From an uncultured virus (IMG/VR IMGVR_UViG_3300021963_006795) (lineage: Duplodnaviria; Heunggongvirae; Uroviricota; Caudoviricetes), in the IMG/VR virus record IMGVR_UViG_3300021963_006795: a DNA stretch of 64,000 nucleotides. One strand, given 5' to 3'. Under the pieces are notes generated by a model. That model made no database searches. It saw only the letters and a program-made list of their open reading frames with translations, and had not been told where the DNA came from. Numbering within the stretch: position 1 is the first letter of the stretch; each line of letters opens with the position of its first letter. A program made the position numbers and the translations under genes. Of the stretch, positions 14,763 to 53,311 are shown piece by piece.

Positions 14763-14834
14763 AGCCCCCGACAAGATTTGAACTTGCGACCAACGGTTTA
14801 CAAAACCGTTGCTCTACCACTGAGCTACAAGGGC
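14763..14834 (-). tRNA. tRNA-Thr(UGU)
   Basis: Cloverleaf GCCCTTG...TAGCTCAGTGGTAGAGC, anticodon loop TT-TGT-AA, GTTCAAATC T-loop. Confidence 0.92.
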
Positions 14835-14835
14835 A

Positions 14836-15105
14836 TTAATCGGCAGGTAACATTTCTGGATTTTCCAGTTCCAATTCATACAAGAATGGATGACATTCTT
14901 CAAGCATTAAGTAGTATGATCCTTGATAAAGGTCTTCAGGTTCAAATCGTCTTTCGTTGTCTGCTAATTTTATTAACTCCAGGTCAAATAAAGATTCGTC
15001 TGGTAGTTCATCAAAAGTAAAAGGAACCTGATTTATAAAGTACATCAGAACAATCATTGTTCCTCTATTGTACCAACAATATTTGGCATCAATTCTGTAC
15101 TTCAT
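14836..15105 (-). CDS. Hypothetical protein
   Basis: 89-aa ORF between two tRNAs. Confidence 0.65.
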   Translation of the reverse strand: MKYRIDAKYCWYNRGTMIVLMYFINQVPFTFDELPDESLFDLELIKLADNERRFEPEDLYQGSYYLMLEECHPFLYELELENPEMLPAD

Positions 15106-15150
15106 AGGATGGTTCCTATTACTTTTGTATATTTAGAGTAAAACTCTAAG

Positions 15151-15233
15151 TAGGACGAGAGGGACTTGAACCCTCAAGGGCGATGCCCGACAGATTTTAA
15201 GTCTGTTGTGTATACCAATTCCACCACCGTCCC
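15151..15233 (-). tRNA. tRNA-Leu(UAA)
   Basis: GGGACGG...GGAATTGGTATACAC, anticodon loop CT-TAA-AA, long variable arm, GTTCAAGTC. Confidence 0.92.
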
Positions 15234-15277
15234 AGGAATAAATAAATTATAACATAAAAGAAATAATAAGTAAAGTC

Positions 15278-15514
15278 ATGAAATCTTACTATCAATTTAT
15301 AGAAAATATAAATGATGCAAGAGTTGCTGCATTAGAGAAGCAGAAAGATGCTCAAGCAAAAATGCAGCAAAGATCTGACGAGTATGAACTAAATCAAAAA
15401 GAAAAGAAAAACGCTGAAAATGATAAAGCAGAACTAAAATATGAAATTAAAAATGATAAAGAAGAATTAAAATATGAAATTAAAAGAGAACTTAAAAGAG
15501 AATTAGGTCTCTGA
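15278..15514 (+). CDS. Small charged protein, possible internal head protein
   Basis: N-terminus MKSYYQFIE resembles the T4 capsid-targeting sequence; ATAAATA upstream; 11-aa tandem repeat. Confidence 0.55.
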   Translation: MKSYYQFIENINDARVAALEKQKDAQAKMQQRSDEYELNQKEKKNAENDKAELKYEIKNDKEELKYEIKRELKRELGL

Positions 15515-15661
15515 TTTATAAGTCGGAGGATTTAGACGACAATACTCATTAAAAGTAATTTTCATCTCTTTCCAAGTTAATCCACAATTTTCAGCTGCTG
15601 TAGGAACATTCCACTTTGCAGTGAAAAGCATTTCCATCGATTTCCTAGTTTCAGGTCTCAT
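15503..15661 (-). CDS. Small hypothetical protein (52 aa, MRPETRKSMEMLFTAKWNVPTAA...)
   Basis: Manual translation; ATGA overlap with the upstream ORF. Confidence 0.6.
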   Translation of the reverse strand: MRPETRKSMEMLFTAKWNVPTAAENCGLTWKEMKITFNEYCRLNPPTYKSET

Positions 15662-15918
15662 GATTTTTTTTCTTTTTTAGAATCTGAAAGTCCTTTAATT
15701 GAAGAAATAATTAGCATATTTGAAAGTAGATACCAAACACCTTCAAATCCAACATTCATTCGGTGACGAATTTCAGCATGTTGTGCTCCAGCAGCAACTG
15801 CTTGCTCAAGAGCAATATAGTCTTTTACAGACCATACACCAAAATAAACAGAAAACGCTAGTCCTTGAACAATTGCGAGACTGTAAATTAGTTTTTTCAT
15901 AACAAAAGAGTTTTTCAA
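15658..15918 (-). CDS. Small two-TM membrane protein
   Basis: Two hydrophobic segments; true start probably MKKLIY. Confidence 0.55.
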   Translation of the reverse strand: MKNSFVMKKLIYSLAIVQGLAFSVYFGVWSVKDYIALEQAVAAGAQHAEIRHRMNVGFEGVWYLLSNMLIISSIKGLSDSKKEKKS

Positions 15919-16009
15919 AAAAGTAATAGGGCAAAAAATTTGCCGGAGTTTTTTTCGACCAAAAATGAAATTAAAGGTCGATTTTGGTATAGGGTAATTT
16001 ATTTACCCA

Positions 16010-16082
16010 TGCTCCTTGCGTGGATCGAACACGCCTCAGGCGAATTATGAGTTCGCTGCATTCACCAGATTGCTAAAGGAGC
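16010..16082 (-). tRNA. tRNA with CAU anticodon (elongator Met; Ile2 not excluded)
   Basis: GCTCCTT/AAGGAGC acceptor stem, loop CT-CAT-AA, GTTCGATCC; no initiator GGG/CCC anticodon stem. Confidence 0.85.
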
Positions 16083-16086
16083 GAGG

Positions 16087-16158
16087 TAGGAGTACTGGGA
16101 GTTGAACCCAGACTACCCCGTTATAAGCAGGGCGCTCTAACCATTAAGCTATACTCCC
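16087..16158 (-). tRNA. tRNA-Ile(UAU)
   Basis: GGGAGTA/TACTCCT acceptor, TAGCTTAATGGTTAGAGC D-arm, loop CT-TAT-AA, GTTCAACTC. Confidence 0.88.
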
Positions 16159-43084: not shown

Positions 43085-43777
43085 TTATTCGATAATTAAT
43101 GATGGAGCATCTACACATTCTTCACAAATATTACTTCTTGTCCATCCTAAGGCAGAAGAAATTGTTGGGAACTGACAGACAAAGATACACTTTGCTTTTT
43201 CTGCAATATCCATATGTTCTTTTTGTGTTCCATTTCCACTACGAAGATCAATATAATGTATCCATGAACGTATAGATCCAGACATATAAAGACGAGTAGG
43301 AGTTGCTAGAGGTAATACAAACCTTGCACATTCTTTGGCAATTCCATCTTCCAACATTTTCTGATACAAATCCATTGAATGTTTAAAATGATCTTGCATC
43401 AAAATTTGATACTTCTGAATTATAAAAGGATCAACATCATTAATACTATTTTGACGATTCTTAGTGTCTTGACGACGGAGTTCAGGAACTGGAATTTCTT
43501 CTCCTAGAAGAGAAGAATCTGCATACCGTTGCGAAAATTCTTGATATGTAAATGATCTATGCCGAAGGATTTGAGCCGCTAGTCCACGAGTTGTATTAAT
43601 TTCAAGGGTCATAAATCCTTGTTCAAAAATACTCCAGTGTTGATTCTTAATGCAATATTTAATTAGACCTTCAAAACTATTACTTTCTTGATTATTGGGA
43701 TTGCTTACACGAGCACAATAAGCAATGTGCTTTTCTGCATCGGGAGTTACACTAATTAATTTAACTGATTGATTCAT
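43085..43777 (-). CDS. thyX: Flavin-dependent thymidylate synthase
   Basis: ARVSN, HWSIFE, RHRSFTYQEFSQRY, ECARFVLP; start set at MNQSV. Confidence 0.95.
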   Translation of the reverse strand: MNQSVKLISVTPDAEKHIAYCARVSNPNNQESNSFEGLIKYCIKNQHWSIFEQGFMTLEINTTRGLAAQILRHRSFTYQEFSQRYADSSLLGEEIPVPELRRQDTKNRQNSINDVDPFIIQKYQILMQDHFKHSMDLYQKMLEDGIAKECARFVLPLATPTRLYMSGSIRSWIHYIDLRSGNGTQKEHMDIAEKAKCIFVCQFPTISSALGWTRSNICEECVDAPSLIIE

Positions 43778-43778
43778 A

Positions 43779-43931
43779 TTAGTAGTCATTGGTTTCTTCA
43801 AAGATTTCGTCATAGTCTGTTATTGGAAAAGTTGTCTCTTCATAATCTATATCGGAATAAACTTCACTTTTAAGTTCTTTTAATATCTGTTCAAGGTTAT
43901 ATATAATCCTTGTTAATTTTTCTTTATCCAT
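43779..43931 (-). CDS. Small hypothetical protein (MDKEKL...)
   Basis: Acidic 50-aa ORF downstream of a promoter. Confidence 0.6.
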   Translation of the reverse strand: MDKEKLTRIIYNLEQILKELKSEVYSDIDYEETTFPITDYDEIFEETNDY

Positions 43932-43953
43932 TATTTTAGTGTGGAATACACAT

Positions 43954-43988
43954 ATTTTACACAAAAAAAAGGAGGATGTCAATCCTCC
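43954..43988 (-). terminator. Terminator with an embedded sigma70 promoter
   Basis: GGAGGA-TTGACA-TCCTCC-T8; loop TTGACA, 17 nt, then TAAAAT. Confidence 0.75.
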
Positions 43989-43995
43989 TTTAGAC

Positions 43996-44097
43996 TCAGG
44001 CAACTTGCGGTTGCTTTGCCATATTAATCTGTGCAAGGTGTAAAAGTTTTTCTTTTTTTGCTTTTCTTTTAAGATAACGGACGAAGTAAGTATTCAT
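43996..44097 (-). CDS. Small basic peptide (33 aa, MNTYFVRYLKRKAKKEKLL...)
   Basis: ATGA-coupled to the DUF4278-like gene; GGAGG RBS. Confidence 0.55.
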   Translation of the reverse strand: MNTYFVRYLKRKAKKEKLLHLAQINMAKQPQVA

Positions 44098-44252
44098 TTT
44101 GCTACCTCCTGATTATTACAGGGACGGTATGCTACTCCACGATAAACATTTTTAGCATGTGCTGGAGCATGTGTTTGGTTATACCAAGATACATACTCTT
44201 TTTTTGCATCTTCGGTGTCGTACTGACAACCTCTATAAACGACTTTAGACAT
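44094..44252 (-). CDS. DUF4278-like protein (52 aa)
   Basis: MSKVVYRGCQYDT...NVYRGVAY: two YRGxxY motifs; AAGGAG RBS. Confidence 0.75.
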   Translation of the reverse strand: MSKVVYRGCQYDTEDAKKEYVSWYNQTHAPAHAKNVYRGVAYRPCNNQEVAK

Positions 44253-44283
44253 TAGGGTTCTCCTTAATTTTGAGGCTAAAGAG

Positions 44284-44502
44284 CGTTCCTTCAGTCGGCT
44301 TTTGCGTCTACTTTACACTCTTTTGGGGAAATTTGTTTTATCTCCCATACTAAATCATTTCTGATTTGTCTTGAAATAGCAGGATGAGCATTTATTCTTG
44401 TAACAATTAATCGTGCTTGTAAACAAGTTAAAATGAGTGTTTCCATAGATGAACGATCCGTTCCGAGTCGGCTTACTTCCGTCTGGATTTCCAGATGAAC
44501 GT
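44284..44502 (-). ncRNA. Tandem glutamine riboswitch (glnA-motif-like) aptamers
   Basis: CGTTCATCTGG-aaat-CCAGACGGAAGTAAG..GGAACG followed by CGTTCATCTA..TAGACGC..CTGAAGGAACG; upstream of DUF4278-like gene. Confidence 0.75.
44291..44446 (-). CDS. 51-aa ORF nested inside the second aptamer
   Basis: METLILTCLQARLIVTRINAHPAISRQIRNDLVWEIKQISPKECKVDAKAD*. Confidence 0.6.
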   Translation of the reverse strand: METLILTCLQARLIVTRINAHPAISRQIRNDLVWEIKQISPKECKVDAKAD

Positions 44503-44508
44503 AAGGTC

Positions 44509-44560
44509 ATTATAGACCTATTGCCATATATATACAAGTCTTTTTGTAAAATATGATACA
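44509..44560 (-). promoter_or_regulatory. Promoter with NtcA box
   Basis: TGTA-N8-TACA at 44545-44560; TTGTAT-17 nt-TATAAT at 44537-44509. Confidence 0.65.
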
Positions 44561-44725
44561 ATTTTTTAATTATTTAATTTTCTTAGATAGTTTAAAATTT
44601 CATCTCTAATTTTCATAAGTTCATCAAAACATTGCTGTTCATAAGCATCATTCCTCAATTGAGGATCTGGTTTTATTACACTCTCTATGAAAAGACTAAG
44701 AGCCCTCTGTCTCTTTTCATCTACA

Positions 44726-45186: not shown

Positions 45187-45513
45187 TCAACGATCGATAT
45201 AATTCAAAGTATGATCTTGAGCAAAAAGTTGATCAATAATCATGTCACATCCAATTTTAGGATTGCAATCTCCACAAGTATAAACATCTACAGCTGCTTT
45301 ACCTTCTTCTGGCCAAGTATGAATACTGATATGACTTTCAGATAAAAGGCAGATAACTGTCACCCCTTGAGGATCAAACTTTTTAAATATAGTTTGGATT
45401 ACTGTTGCTCCACTAGCAATTGCTGCATTTTCCAGTAAGTCTATAAGACATTTCTCATCGTTAAGAAGAACAAATGAGCATCCGTATAAATTTAAAAGAT
45501 AATGCTTTCCCAT
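45187..45513 (-). CDS. speD: S-adenosylmethionine decarboxylase proenzyme
   Basis: F.PQGVT, LSESHISIHTWPE, DVYTCG. Confidence 0.92.
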   Translation of the reverse strand: MGKHYLLNLYGCSFVLLNDEKCLIDLLENAAIASGATVIQTIFKKFDPQGVTVICLLSESHISIHTWPEEGKAAVDVYTCGDCNPKIGCDMIIDQLFAQDHTLNYIDR

Positions 45514-53159: not shown

Positions 53160-53270
53160 AAGTAAGTAGTCCATCAGGGAAATGGTGGAGATACTTATTT
53201 CCTAGACACCCTAAGTCTAGGATATGAGAGACGCATTTATACTCCCCATAGGTCTCGGTTAGTGGGAGTT
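53160..53270 (-). ncRNA. Structured psbA 5' leader (PhotoRC-II-like)
   Basis: Stems CTCCCA/TGGGGAG, CCTAGAC/GTCTAGG, CCAT/ATGG and GAGAC/GTCTC; position matches the phage psbA leader motif. Confidence 0.55.
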
Positions 53271-53311
53271 ACAAAGATTAATGAACTGTTACATTCCTTA
53301 ATCTTTTGATG

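Follow-up and report, generated by a model that had tools for sequence, protein, structure and literature searches.

We analysed a 64,000-nucleotide (nt) stretch of DNA from an uncultured virus (IMG/VR record IMGVR_UViG_3300021963_006795; Caudoviricetes), here called the window, and report on a cassette of about 590 nt on its minus strand (44559..43968) in which a small predicted protein gene is nested in a leader RNA made of two glutamine-riboswitch-like aptamer copies. The window is cyanomyovirus-like, and Rfam has six matches in it: four tRNAs, a PhotoRC-II RNA and a single Glutamine (glnA) riboswitch. Among named phages, those closest to it at this locus infect freshwater/estuarine Synechococcus: DSL-LC03, S-SRM01, DSL-LC02, S-PM2 and S-CREM1. 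An earlier note on this DNA had placed a 51-codon open reading frame (ORF) inside the P2 loop of the second aptamer copy. Every element of that layout is present, and all are read from the minus strand, where the earlier note had given no strand. Named according to the fold argued for below, the elements of the leader and the gene within it are as follows, in the order in which the minus strand is read.

44497..44501, minus strand: strand a, CGUUC, the 5' strand of the outer P1; invariant in the alignments; pairs with strand d (44288..44284) in the nested fold
44482..44495, minus strand: P2a hairpin of the outer core, UCUGG-AAAU-CCAGA; lies in the Rfam match; four of four tested pairs covary and 99% of cells are paired
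44474..44481, minus strand: junction strand CGGAAGUA; G44480 is the G of the pocket triple, G44479 the linchpin base X1, and AGUA (44477..44474) one half of loop E
44466..44473, minus strand: P3a, AGCCGACU, one strand of the shared inter-core P3; partner 44300..44293
44451..44463, minus strand: inner P1 hairpin, formed by strand b (GAACG, 44463..44459), the linker GAU and strand c (CGUUC, 44455..44451); G44458 is the linchpin base Yb
44445..44449, minus strand: 5' strand of P2b, UCUAU; holds the A and U of the start codon AUG (44446..44444); partner 44311..44307
44291..44446, minus strand: nested gene, 51 amino acids (aa) plus UGA, phrog_504 family; identified by substitution ratio, frame conservation and profile match; modelled as a two-helix hairpin, with two conserved cysteines
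44435..44440, minus strand: 5' strand of the P2b extension helix, ACACUC, within codons 3–4; partner GAGUGU, 44320..44315
44315..44320, minus strand: 3' strand of the P2b extension helix, GAGUGU, within the Glu-Cys codons
44307..44311, minus strand: 3' strand of P2b, GUAGA, within the ORF; supported by P2b covariation
44301..44306, minus strand: inner junction strand CGCAAA; invariant; G44305 is the G of the pocket triple and C44304 the linchpin base X2; no AGUA
44293..44300, minus strand: P3b, AGCCGACU, the second strand of the shared P3; its final U is the U of the UGA stop of the ORF
44284..44292, minus strand: GAA half of loop E (44292..44290, overlapping the stop codon), a G, and strand d (GAACG, 44288..44284), the 3' strand of the outer P1; invariant

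Relatives provided the context for these assignments. A peptide-seeded scan of viral contigs returned 421 pattern matches, 290 of which encode a relative of the nested protein, and the best 80 of the 290 were retrieved. A pattern scan for the 3' half of copy 2 yielded at least 120 loci; 113 were parsed, 106 of them with a complete 5' side. Two alignments are used throughout: A2, which holds 25 leaders that lack the ORF, and A3, which holds 56 distinct ORF-bearing leaders including the window.

Copy 1 (44501..44459, minus strand) reads CGUUC-A-UCUGG-AAAU-CCAGA-CGGAAGUA-AGCCGACU-C-GGAACG, and its P2 has the 4-nt loop (AAAU) attributed to it by the earlier note and forms part of the Rfam match. 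Copy 2 follows after a 3-nt linker, begins with CGUUC-A-UCUAUGG (44455 onward) and ends with GUAGA-CGCAAA-AGCCGACU-GAA-G-GAACG (to 44284). As had also been observed, its flanks match those of copy 1 (CGUUC at 44455..44451, and UAGACGCAAAAGCCGACUGAAGGAACG ending at 44284) and its P2 strands are separated by about 135 nt. Loop E, for which the glnA consensus is AGUA opposite GAA, is a defining feature of glnA RNAs. Here its AGUA half lies in copy 1 and its GAA half in copy 2, again as first described: copy 1 has GGAAGUA but CUCGGAACG, and copy 2 has GCAAAAG but GAAGGAACG.

The Rfam Glutamine model (RF01739, cut-off 35 bits) has a single match in the window, the copy-1 region 44503..44455 on the minus strand, at 37.1 bits; copy 1 in the other leaders and the window scores 20.4–37.1 bits. 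A sensitive Rfam scan of 43900–44700 gave no match to copy 2 up to an E value of 10 with the ORF in place. The proposal that the aptamer model should fit once the loop is removed could be followed on natural alleles of copy 2 without an ORF, and was borne out in part: S-PM2 (33.3 bits) and S-CREM1 (33.5 bits) score on RF01739 within the range of copy 1, but just below the cut-off. Scores for RF01704 (Downstream-peptide, glutamine-II; cut-off 33 bits) lie below the cut-off both in the window (18.5 bits) and in S-PM2 (24.6 bits).

As described in the text of PMC6698751, the pockets of glutamine-I and glutamine-II RNAs are virtually identical: each is built from the C:G and G:C pairs of a CGUUC/GAACG helix together with one G from the junction strand, and its cap is a long-range pair that joins the following junction base to the one after GAACG. 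We assigned ligand-contact positions and nucleotide roles from this description, and refer to the capping pair as the linchpin. The ligand-contact positions (C1, G2, the C and G of GAACG, and the G of ACG) are invariant in both cores, in A2 and in A3 alike.

Covariation indicates that the leader is one composite glutamine sensor, in which two glnA-type cores sit at the ends of a shared P3, and that the nested register is the one that covaries. The earlier note had mentioned an interleaved fold as an afterthought, and this is the architecture favoured by the P3a:P3b and linchpin pairs. Its view of copy 2 as a self-contained second aptamer was not upheld; copy 2 instead appears as the inner core of an interlocked pair, with one P3 helix common to it and copy 1. 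In the window, as in all the leaders listed, loop E is split: AGUA and CUC-GGAACG belong to copy 1, CAAA and GAA-GGAACG to copy 2. Only across the shared P3 do the two halves lie opposite each other, and no copy holds a single self-contained loop E. Among 197 loci parsed from 206 sources, the base that ends P3a can pair with the one that begins P3b in 196 (U-A 152, G-C 17, A-U 21, U.G 6; one mismatch). The same end pair is formed in all 25 leaders of A2 (GC 10, AU 9, UA 6), and inner P3 positions covary in A3 (G-C 38, G.U 8 and A-U 7 of 56). The nested structure as a whole is 92.5% paired in A2, which none of 500 shuffles reaches; the local P3 hairpin closures needed if the aptamers stood side by side are paired in 6 of the 25.

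The linchpin bases lead to the same arrangement. In the window these are G in the copy-1 junction, G after the middle GAACG, C in the copy-2 junction and C after the last GAACG; they can be matched only when the copy-1 junction is paired with the far 3' end and the copy-2 junction with the middle strand. Counted over 155 unique leaders, the nested register pairs X1 with Yd (G44479:C44283 in the window) in all 155 (G:C 88, C:G 67) and X2 with Yb (C44304:G44458) in 152, as C:G. The tandem register pairs 67 of 155 for each, and 12 of 25 in A2 versus 25 of 25 for the nested register. Since the P1 strands are invariant, strand d was assigned as the partner of strand a through the linchpin and P3 covariation. 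The linker of the inner P1, measured in 143 unique leaders, is 3 nt long in 85, 4 nt in 48, 5 nt in 6 and 6 nt in 1, is never shorter than 3 nt, and is 20, 21 and 44 nt long in one leader each. These long linkers (20, 21 or 44 nt, in L023, L195 and L108) contain a small hairpin of their own and are compatible with a longer inner-P1 loop. The unconstrained minimum free energy (MFE) structure, at -48.8 kcal/mol, pairs strand a with strand d as the outer P1, and the bare scaffold is computed at -20.2 kcal/mol for the nested fold versus -16.6 kcal/mol for the tandem fold.

On this evidence, the outer core takes in strands a and d, P2a, CGG-AAGUA, the shared P3, GAA-G and the capping C, and its predicted topology is that of canonical glutamine-I, loop E included. 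The inner core combines the shared P3 with strand c, P2b, CGC-AAA and C-GGAACG-G; its predicted connectivity is the same, except that loop E is absent, and the linker closes its P1 into a hairpin. We hold the resulting anatomy, a gene nested in an interlocked double-core sensor, with high confidence.

The nested ORF runs as the earlier note had traced it: it starts at UCU-AUG, crosses the 3' strand of P2 and ends at the UGA of CUGAAGGAACG (CUGAAGG, read on the minus strand). That it is nested and is a real gene stands; that it is confined to the P2 loop does not, as its last seven codons are the 3' strand of P2, the junction and the shared P3 strands. In the central part of the ORF, outside the aptamer strands, synonymous differences (pS) amount to 0.68 and nonsynonymous differences (pN) to 0.20 in A3 (n = 56), giving a dN/dS of 0.13, compared with 0.72 and 2.68 in the other frames. 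There are no internal stops in the ORF frame versus 233 and 236 in the other two (56 sequences). The entropy of the three codon positions in A3 is 0.75, 0.35 and 1.22, a three-base periodicity, and insertions and deletions in the ORF come in multiples of three. The central 114 nt carry no conserved pairing requirement. We take these signatures to mean that the nested ORF is a real protein gene under protein-level selection.

The ORF is conserved at 60–64% aa identity in DSL-LC03, S-SRM01 and DSL-LC02, where it is annotated in two and missed in DSL-LC03. Relatives of the nested protein are encoded on 290 viral contigs, and 93 clusters in protein databases match at E values up to 0.01. The protein matches phrog_504, a family without assigned function, over residues 6–49 (E = 3.7e-7, 30.7 bits), and has no match among Pfam families. 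An AlphaFold2 model built with 64 homologues is a two-helix hairpin (residues 2–20 and 26–39; mean predicted local distance difference test score (pLDDT) 76.4), with the last 12 residues, the part encoded by the aptamer core, predicted to be disordered. Prokaryote genomes, one per species for 185,579 species, gave 50 pattern matches and no relatives with two strict freshwater-family patterns, which have little say on distant forms.

The gene and the aptamer keep to one layout. In 80 of 80 IMG/VR loci, the best 80 of the 290, a 5' half-aptamer stands at the ATG, so that homologues of the peptide also sit in aptamers, as the earlier note had asked; the dN/dS that it proposed as a further check supports coding. 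Of the 120 unique leaders whose insert measures 119 nt or more, 119 have a frame that opens 9–11 nt downstream of CGUUC and runs to the N-GAAGG triplet. This triplet is UGA in 118 of these and GGA, which is read through, in S-SRM01; the sole exception is L153. Because of these two counts, the shared layout of ORF and aptamer is not due to chance.

Where codons double as RNA strands, the coding sequence is also constrained as RNA. In the six codons that form the 3' strand of P2b, the junction and the P3 strand, pS drops from 0.68 to 0.16 in A3, and the entropy of third positions falls to 0.26. In each of the 101 unique leaders that bear an ORF, P2b encloses it as a contiguous stem of at least 4 bp (mean 5.9), and the strands of P2b occur in 34 distinct combinations that covary, such as UCUAU/AUAGA, UCCUC/GAGGA and UCCCA/UGGGA. 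The mean P2b pairing of 6.03 compares with 4.00 +/- 0.26 for permuted strands, and none of 2000 permutations reaches it. P2b is paired in 99.6% of cells in the 56 relatives, and in leaders without an ORF five of its eight pairs covary. As a result of this covariation, the residue that precedes a conserved Asp (Ile, Val, Trp, Lys, Glu or Arg) varies in step with untranslated bases before the AUG. The P2b extension helix (alignment positions 103-112/219-228) has about 85% of its cells paired with few compensatory changes, and its support is weaker than that of P2b. In S-SRM01 (L002 596-629), a compensatory change of the outermost P3 pair from A-U to C-G turns the UGA of the ORF into GGA, which extends the nested protein by five residues, to a UAA inside the anti-Shine–Dalgarno (anti-SD) strand. 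The frozen synonymous sites and compensated pairs show that the RNA overlapping the nested gene is under RNA-level selection.

Gene-sized hairpins are widespread among the relatives. Among the matches listed, P2b is ORF-sized in 68 of 113 leaders and short in 45, and P2a is ORF-sized in 31 of 106; 13 leaders have both ORFs and 27 have neither. The lengths of the P2 loops vary freely in A2 and A3. ORFs of copy 2 encode 49–66 aa, have 21–48% identity to one marine reference, start 9–11 nt after CGUUC, and share a hydrophobic N terminus, two invariant cysteines and the core-encoded ending Asp-Ala-Lys-Ala-Asp. Profile comparison indicates that the freshwater and marine copy-2 proteins are homologous (hhalign probability 97.1%, E = 5.5e-11, values partly inflated by the core-encoded tail). 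The ORFs in P2a, found in relatives and not in the window, form a family of 36 distinct peptides of 61–73 aa, with signal-peptide-like N termini and two cysteines, all 36 of which start 10–12 nt after CGUUC. Many of the marine ones stop at a UAA inside AAGUAAGCC, and marine P2a-hosted peptides match phrog_6471. Examples lie at the following places in relatives.

L046:1245-1451: P2a gene
L141:58-261: P2a gene
34 other loci: P2a genes

Marine copy-2 ORFs resemble the copy-1 ORFs of P2a (hhalign probability 93.4%, E = 2.5e-7, with both cysteines aligned), which suggests that the module of core plus gene was duplicated as a unit. The freshwater copy-2 family compared with copy-1 ORFs gave no significant hhalign result (10%), and the link rests on the marine forms. 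At L192 the copy-2 site holds an ORF of the copy-1 family, and at L153 the copy-2 ORF does not reach the UGA; both layouts suggest recombination between the two repeated cores. A degenerate form occurs on the IMG/VR contig L052 (about 1501-1700): its nested ORF is intact and ends in UAA, but it has lost both the 3' strand of P1 and the gene for the downstream peptide, and a terminator-like hairpin stands in their place. No public sequencing run covers half of the stretch. Contigs of relatives with 85–95% likeness occur in RNA libraries from four freshwater studies (one library each), although contigs do not prove transcription; one, of 337 nt, spans an ORF-bearing leader, and another is an ORF-less allele with a 20-nt hairpin in the place of the ORF.

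The leader is part of a compact predicted transcription unit, the remaining features of which are listed here.

44546..44559, minus strand: GTA-N8-TAC motif upstream of the leader, conserved in relatives
44509..44537, minus strand: putative promoter, TTGTAT (44537..44532), 17-nt spacer and TATAAT (44514..44509), read by eye and ending 7 nt before the first CGUUC
44260..44283, minus strand: expression platform, with anti-SD CUCUUUA (44283..44277), which starts with the linchpin base Yd (C44283), and Shine–Dalgarno sequence (SD) UAAGGAG (44266..44260)
44094..44252, minus strand: downstream gene for a 52-aa YRG-type peptide (DUF4278/IF17-like), with a PHROG profile match and a Pfam match below the cut-off
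43996..44097, minus strand: ORF for a basic, lysine-rich peptide of 33 aa, overlapping the preceding stop (ATGA) and ending 5 nt before the terminator
43968..43991, minus strand: intrinsic terminator, a 10-bp stem plus a T run, which ends the cassette

The GTA-N8-TAC motif occurs in 100 of 113 unique related upstream regions, compared with a mean of 3.7 and a maximum of 9 in shuffles, mostly 57–62 nt before CGUUC, with smaller groups at 38–39 nt and 19 nt. We take it to be an NtcA-box-like element. Measured from the TATAAT read by eye, its centre would lie near -50, one helical turn past the usual position of an activator. A scan with promoter consensus did not call TTGTAT-17-TATAAT, the -35 element of which matches at three of six positions; TAnAAT lies 13–16 nt before CGUUC in 48 of 113 relatives.

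At the other end of the leader, anti-SD and SD form an 8-bp hairpin in the MFE structure. If an SD is defined by an anti-SD duplex at least as strong as -6 kcal/mol, the downstream gene has a strong SD in 95% of 105 relatives (median -8.0), and its start lies 31–36 nt after GAACG in most. For the nested ORF, an SD-like duplex is found in 0 of 108 (median -4.1); the 18 nt before its AUG are the inner P1 hairpin, and the A and U of the AUG lie in P2b. The downstream peptide matches phrog_5049 (E = 2.6e-11) and DUF4278 (E = 4e-4), the latter at 21.1 bits, which is below the Pfam cut-off of 25.3. The 33-aa ORF has no Pfam or PHROG match; S-SRM01 has a similar ORF directly behind the corresponding gene. 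The text of PMC6212724 describes the glutamine-I riboswitch of Synechocystis and other cyanobacteria as an ON switch for gifB, which encodes the DUF4278 protein IF17, and proposes that bases 3' of P1 mask the ribosome-binding site until glutamine binds. The platform in the window is arranged as in the gifB leader, with the capping base C44283 as the first base of the anti-SD.

Taken together, these features probably represent a phage nitrogen-status module: a composite double-core glutamine sensor in which P2b encloses a two-cysteine gene whose codons double as core strands. The fold stabilised by glutamine would block initiation of the nested gene, because the ORF has no SD and its AUG lies in a stem. 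The same fold would engage C44283, the base with which the anti-SD starts, and would thereby free the SD of the downstream IF17-like gene, in the manner of the gifB ON switch; we infer the switching role of this platform by analogy with PMC6212724. A ribosome on the nested ORF would have to open the outer P1 as well as P2b, P3 and loop E, so that each passage would erase both pockets, because the gene's closing codons coincide with the junction strand, with loop E and with the shared P3. A ribosome terminating 10 nt before the anti-SD could also open the downstream SD. This regulatory logic, in which the folded sensor shuts off the nested gene and opens the downstream one, with ribosomes in their turn dismantling the pockets, is plausible but tentative. 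Like the earlier note's ideas that glutamine could gate the peptide or that ribosomes could reset the switch, it is suggested by the layout of the strands, with the AUG in the P2 stem, no SD and the stop inside loop E. Somewhat unlikely, in our estimation, is its elaboration into a toggle with two outputs, in which high glutamine would hide the nested start and free the SD of the IF17-like gene, low glutamine would admit ribosomes to the nested gene, and translation would act as a built-in reset. If true, relatives with genes in both hairpins would choose among three proteins.

Several observations weigh against this reading of the cassette. When the interior of the ORF is folded as well, the nearest-neighbour energies, which do not decide between the folds, are -41.9 kcal/mol for the nested fold versus -45.1 kcal/mol for the tandem fold. 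All four P1 strands are present but invariant, and the choice of a:d/b:c over a:b/c:d is made by the linchpin and P3 only. The two states of the linchpin partly track clades, and controls in which the pairing was slid keep 42–46% pairing; on a quick tree of the window's family, built from the central columns of the ORF, there are three linchpin co-switches (2–3 independent pairs; sign test p = 0.5, underpowered). The shared P3 is 76–78% paired, with two persistent A.C mismatches. The inner core has no loop E and may for this reason fail to bind glutamine. For both genes, the direction of regulation is one that we infer from the arrangement of the strands, and the DUF4278 match of the downstream peptide falls short of its cut-off. 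Finally, alleles that lack the ORF but keep both cores and the platform unchanged are common (45 of 113 among the matches listed), and the ORF is thus not needed for downstream control.

This last point bears on the main alternative, that the nested gene is a passenger, with the sensor controlling the IF17-like gene and the ORF filling an insertion-tolerant loop, which compacts the genome, without meaningful coupling to glutamine. The free variation of P2 loop length and the RNA-library contig with its 20-nt hairpin would agree with it. A pure passenger, however, could carry its own SD and lie wholly within the loop, whereas none of 108 nested ORFs has an SD, and the ATG lies 9–11 nt after CGUUC, inside the stem, even in ORFs at 21–48% identity; the second ORF family, in the other core, starts alike in 36 of 36 peptides, 10–12 nt after CGUUC. 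We regard a passenger as unlikely. Improbable, in turn, is a leader-peptide logic in which translation of the nested ORF serves mainly to unmask the downstream SD, by melting or by termination and reinitiation as in mgtA-mgtL, the peptide itself being of minor importance. It would account for the nested stop inside loop E, 10 nt before the anti-SD, for the downstream start 31–36 nt after GAACG in most relatives, and for the read-through ORF of S-SRM01, which ends inside the anti-SD, but it would not lead one to expect a peptide of 49–66 aa under purifying selection (dN/dS 0.13), with both cysteines invariant and membership of a PHROG family, and leaders without the ORF keep the same platform.

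The architecture itself and the coding status of the ORF can be questioned as well. Two ordinary glutamine aptamers could lie side by side as a pseudo-cooperative tandem, the second with a long P2 loop: Rfam aligns copy 1 alone (37.1 bits), both P1 registers are compatible with the sequence, and the text of PMC9481103 classes glutamine doublets in this way. Such independent tandem riboswitches are ruled against by the linchpin (67 of 155 versus 155 and 152 of 155 for the nested pairs), by the P3 closures (6 of 25), and by the 3–6 nt between copies in 140 of 143 leaders, a spacing that leaves no room for a separate expression platform; each copy moreover misses one half of loop E. We consider this arrangement very improbable. 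The least probable of the alternatives is that the ORF is untranslated and conserved through RNA structure alone. It lacks an SD and a Pfam family and is unannotated in DSL-LC03, as would suit this idea; against it stand the three-base periodicity, the dN/dS of 0.13 in the ORF frame only, the absence of stops compared with 233 and 236 in the other frames, the indels in multiples of three and the 114 central nucleotides that have no conserved pairing requirement.

We compared the interlocked sensor with systems already described. It resembles glutamine-I (RF01739), as the gifB/IF17 leader is presented in PMC6212724, in its CGUUC/GAACG P1 strands, P2, ACG-G junction, loop E and long-range cap, and also in its position upstream of a small DUF4278-like gene with an anti-SD/SD platform. 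Unlike glutamine-I, it has no complete single copy: the halves of loop E and the capping partners are split over two copies that share P3, a second core without loop E lies inside the first, and a hairpin encloses a gene whose codons double as core nucleotides. With the tandem glutamine doublets of PMC9481103 it has in common the two aptamer-like repeats in one leader. That review of tandem riboswitches (2022) counts 157 doublets and 4 triplets, classed as pseudo-cooperative, and its glutamine doublets are probably the same sequence population as the leaders here. Its text reads the doublets as independent units, whereas the covariation reported here favours an interlocked fold with one expression platform; the text mentions neither nesting nor ORFs inside aptamers, the supplementary lists lying outside this statement. 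The inner core is like glutamine-II (RF01704) in its junction CGC, its GGAACG-G, its C:G capping pair, its lack of loop E and its pocket nucleotides, as these are given in PMC6698751. A two-piece glutamine-II RNA that assembles around its ligand, described in the same text, is a precedent for pockets made from distant strands. The inner core differs from glutamine-II in its three-way-junction connectivity and in having no glutamine-II pseudoknot, and RF01704 gives it only 18.5 bits. The S-CREM1 genome paper annotates its doublet as one glnA feature (PMC9964418). String searches of the Weinberg 2010 seed alignment, which does contain wide gap columns, found no ORF-bearing or tandem rows, and CGGAACGG matched other motifs. 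Full-text literature searches returned no description of the interlocked fold or of nested genes; the supplementary lists of reviews were outside their coverage, and a mention there is possible.

Genes within structured RNAs have precedents of another kind. The Salmonella mgtA leader holds mgtL, a 17-codon ORF for a regulatory peptide. The cassette is like mgtA/mgtL in having an ORF in a ligand-sensing leader and, as proposed, translation coupled to the fold. Unlike mgtL, the nested ORF encodes a conserved protein of 49–66 aa under purifying selection and overlaps the ligand-binding core, properties that set it apart from leader peptides. Peripheral loops of group I and group II introns carry ORFs for homing endonucleases and maturases; these are genes of mobile elements with their own initiation signals and are not known to share nucleotides with the catalytic core. 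The nested gene is like them in that a protein gene sits in the loop of a structured RNA that is closed by a long-range helix. It differs in that the locus bears no sign of mobility and both ends of the gene are core strands.

Beyond the cassette, the PhotoRC-II RNA (53187-53281, minus strand, 77.6 bits) and the four tRNA genes (14763-16158, minus strand) are consistent with a T4-like cyanophage. A neighbouring gene (45187-45513, minus strand) resembles speD, which encodes S-adenosylmethionine decarboxylase, and speD is annotated at the equivalent position of S-PM2; another neighbouring ORF (43085-43813, minus strand) is thymidylate-synthase-like in appearance.

We read the leader as a glutamine-I riboswitch that is interlocked and double-cored and that hosts a gene whose codons form part of the sensor. 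Sensor and gene share nucleotides, against the textbook picture of riboswitches as non-coding sensors that stand ahead of genes. RNA structure here overrides protein: divergence at synonymous sites is held down, and one phage has given up a stop codon for a compensatory base pair. If glutamine tandems are interlocked sensors with two pockets, their dose-response, stoichiometry and database models need revision, and Rfam detects just one of the two cores in this window. Gene-bearing hairpins are common among the matches listed (68 of 113 in P2b and 31 of 106 in P2a), and routine annotation therefore misses the RNA or the gene in many cyanophage genomes. Cultured systems are available in S-SRM01, DSL-LC02 and DSL-LC03, and, without the ORF, in S-PM2 and S-CREM1. 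For the biology of these phages, the cassette points to control of host nitrogen metabolism by the phage through an NtcA-type box, a glutamine sensor and an IF17-like peptide.

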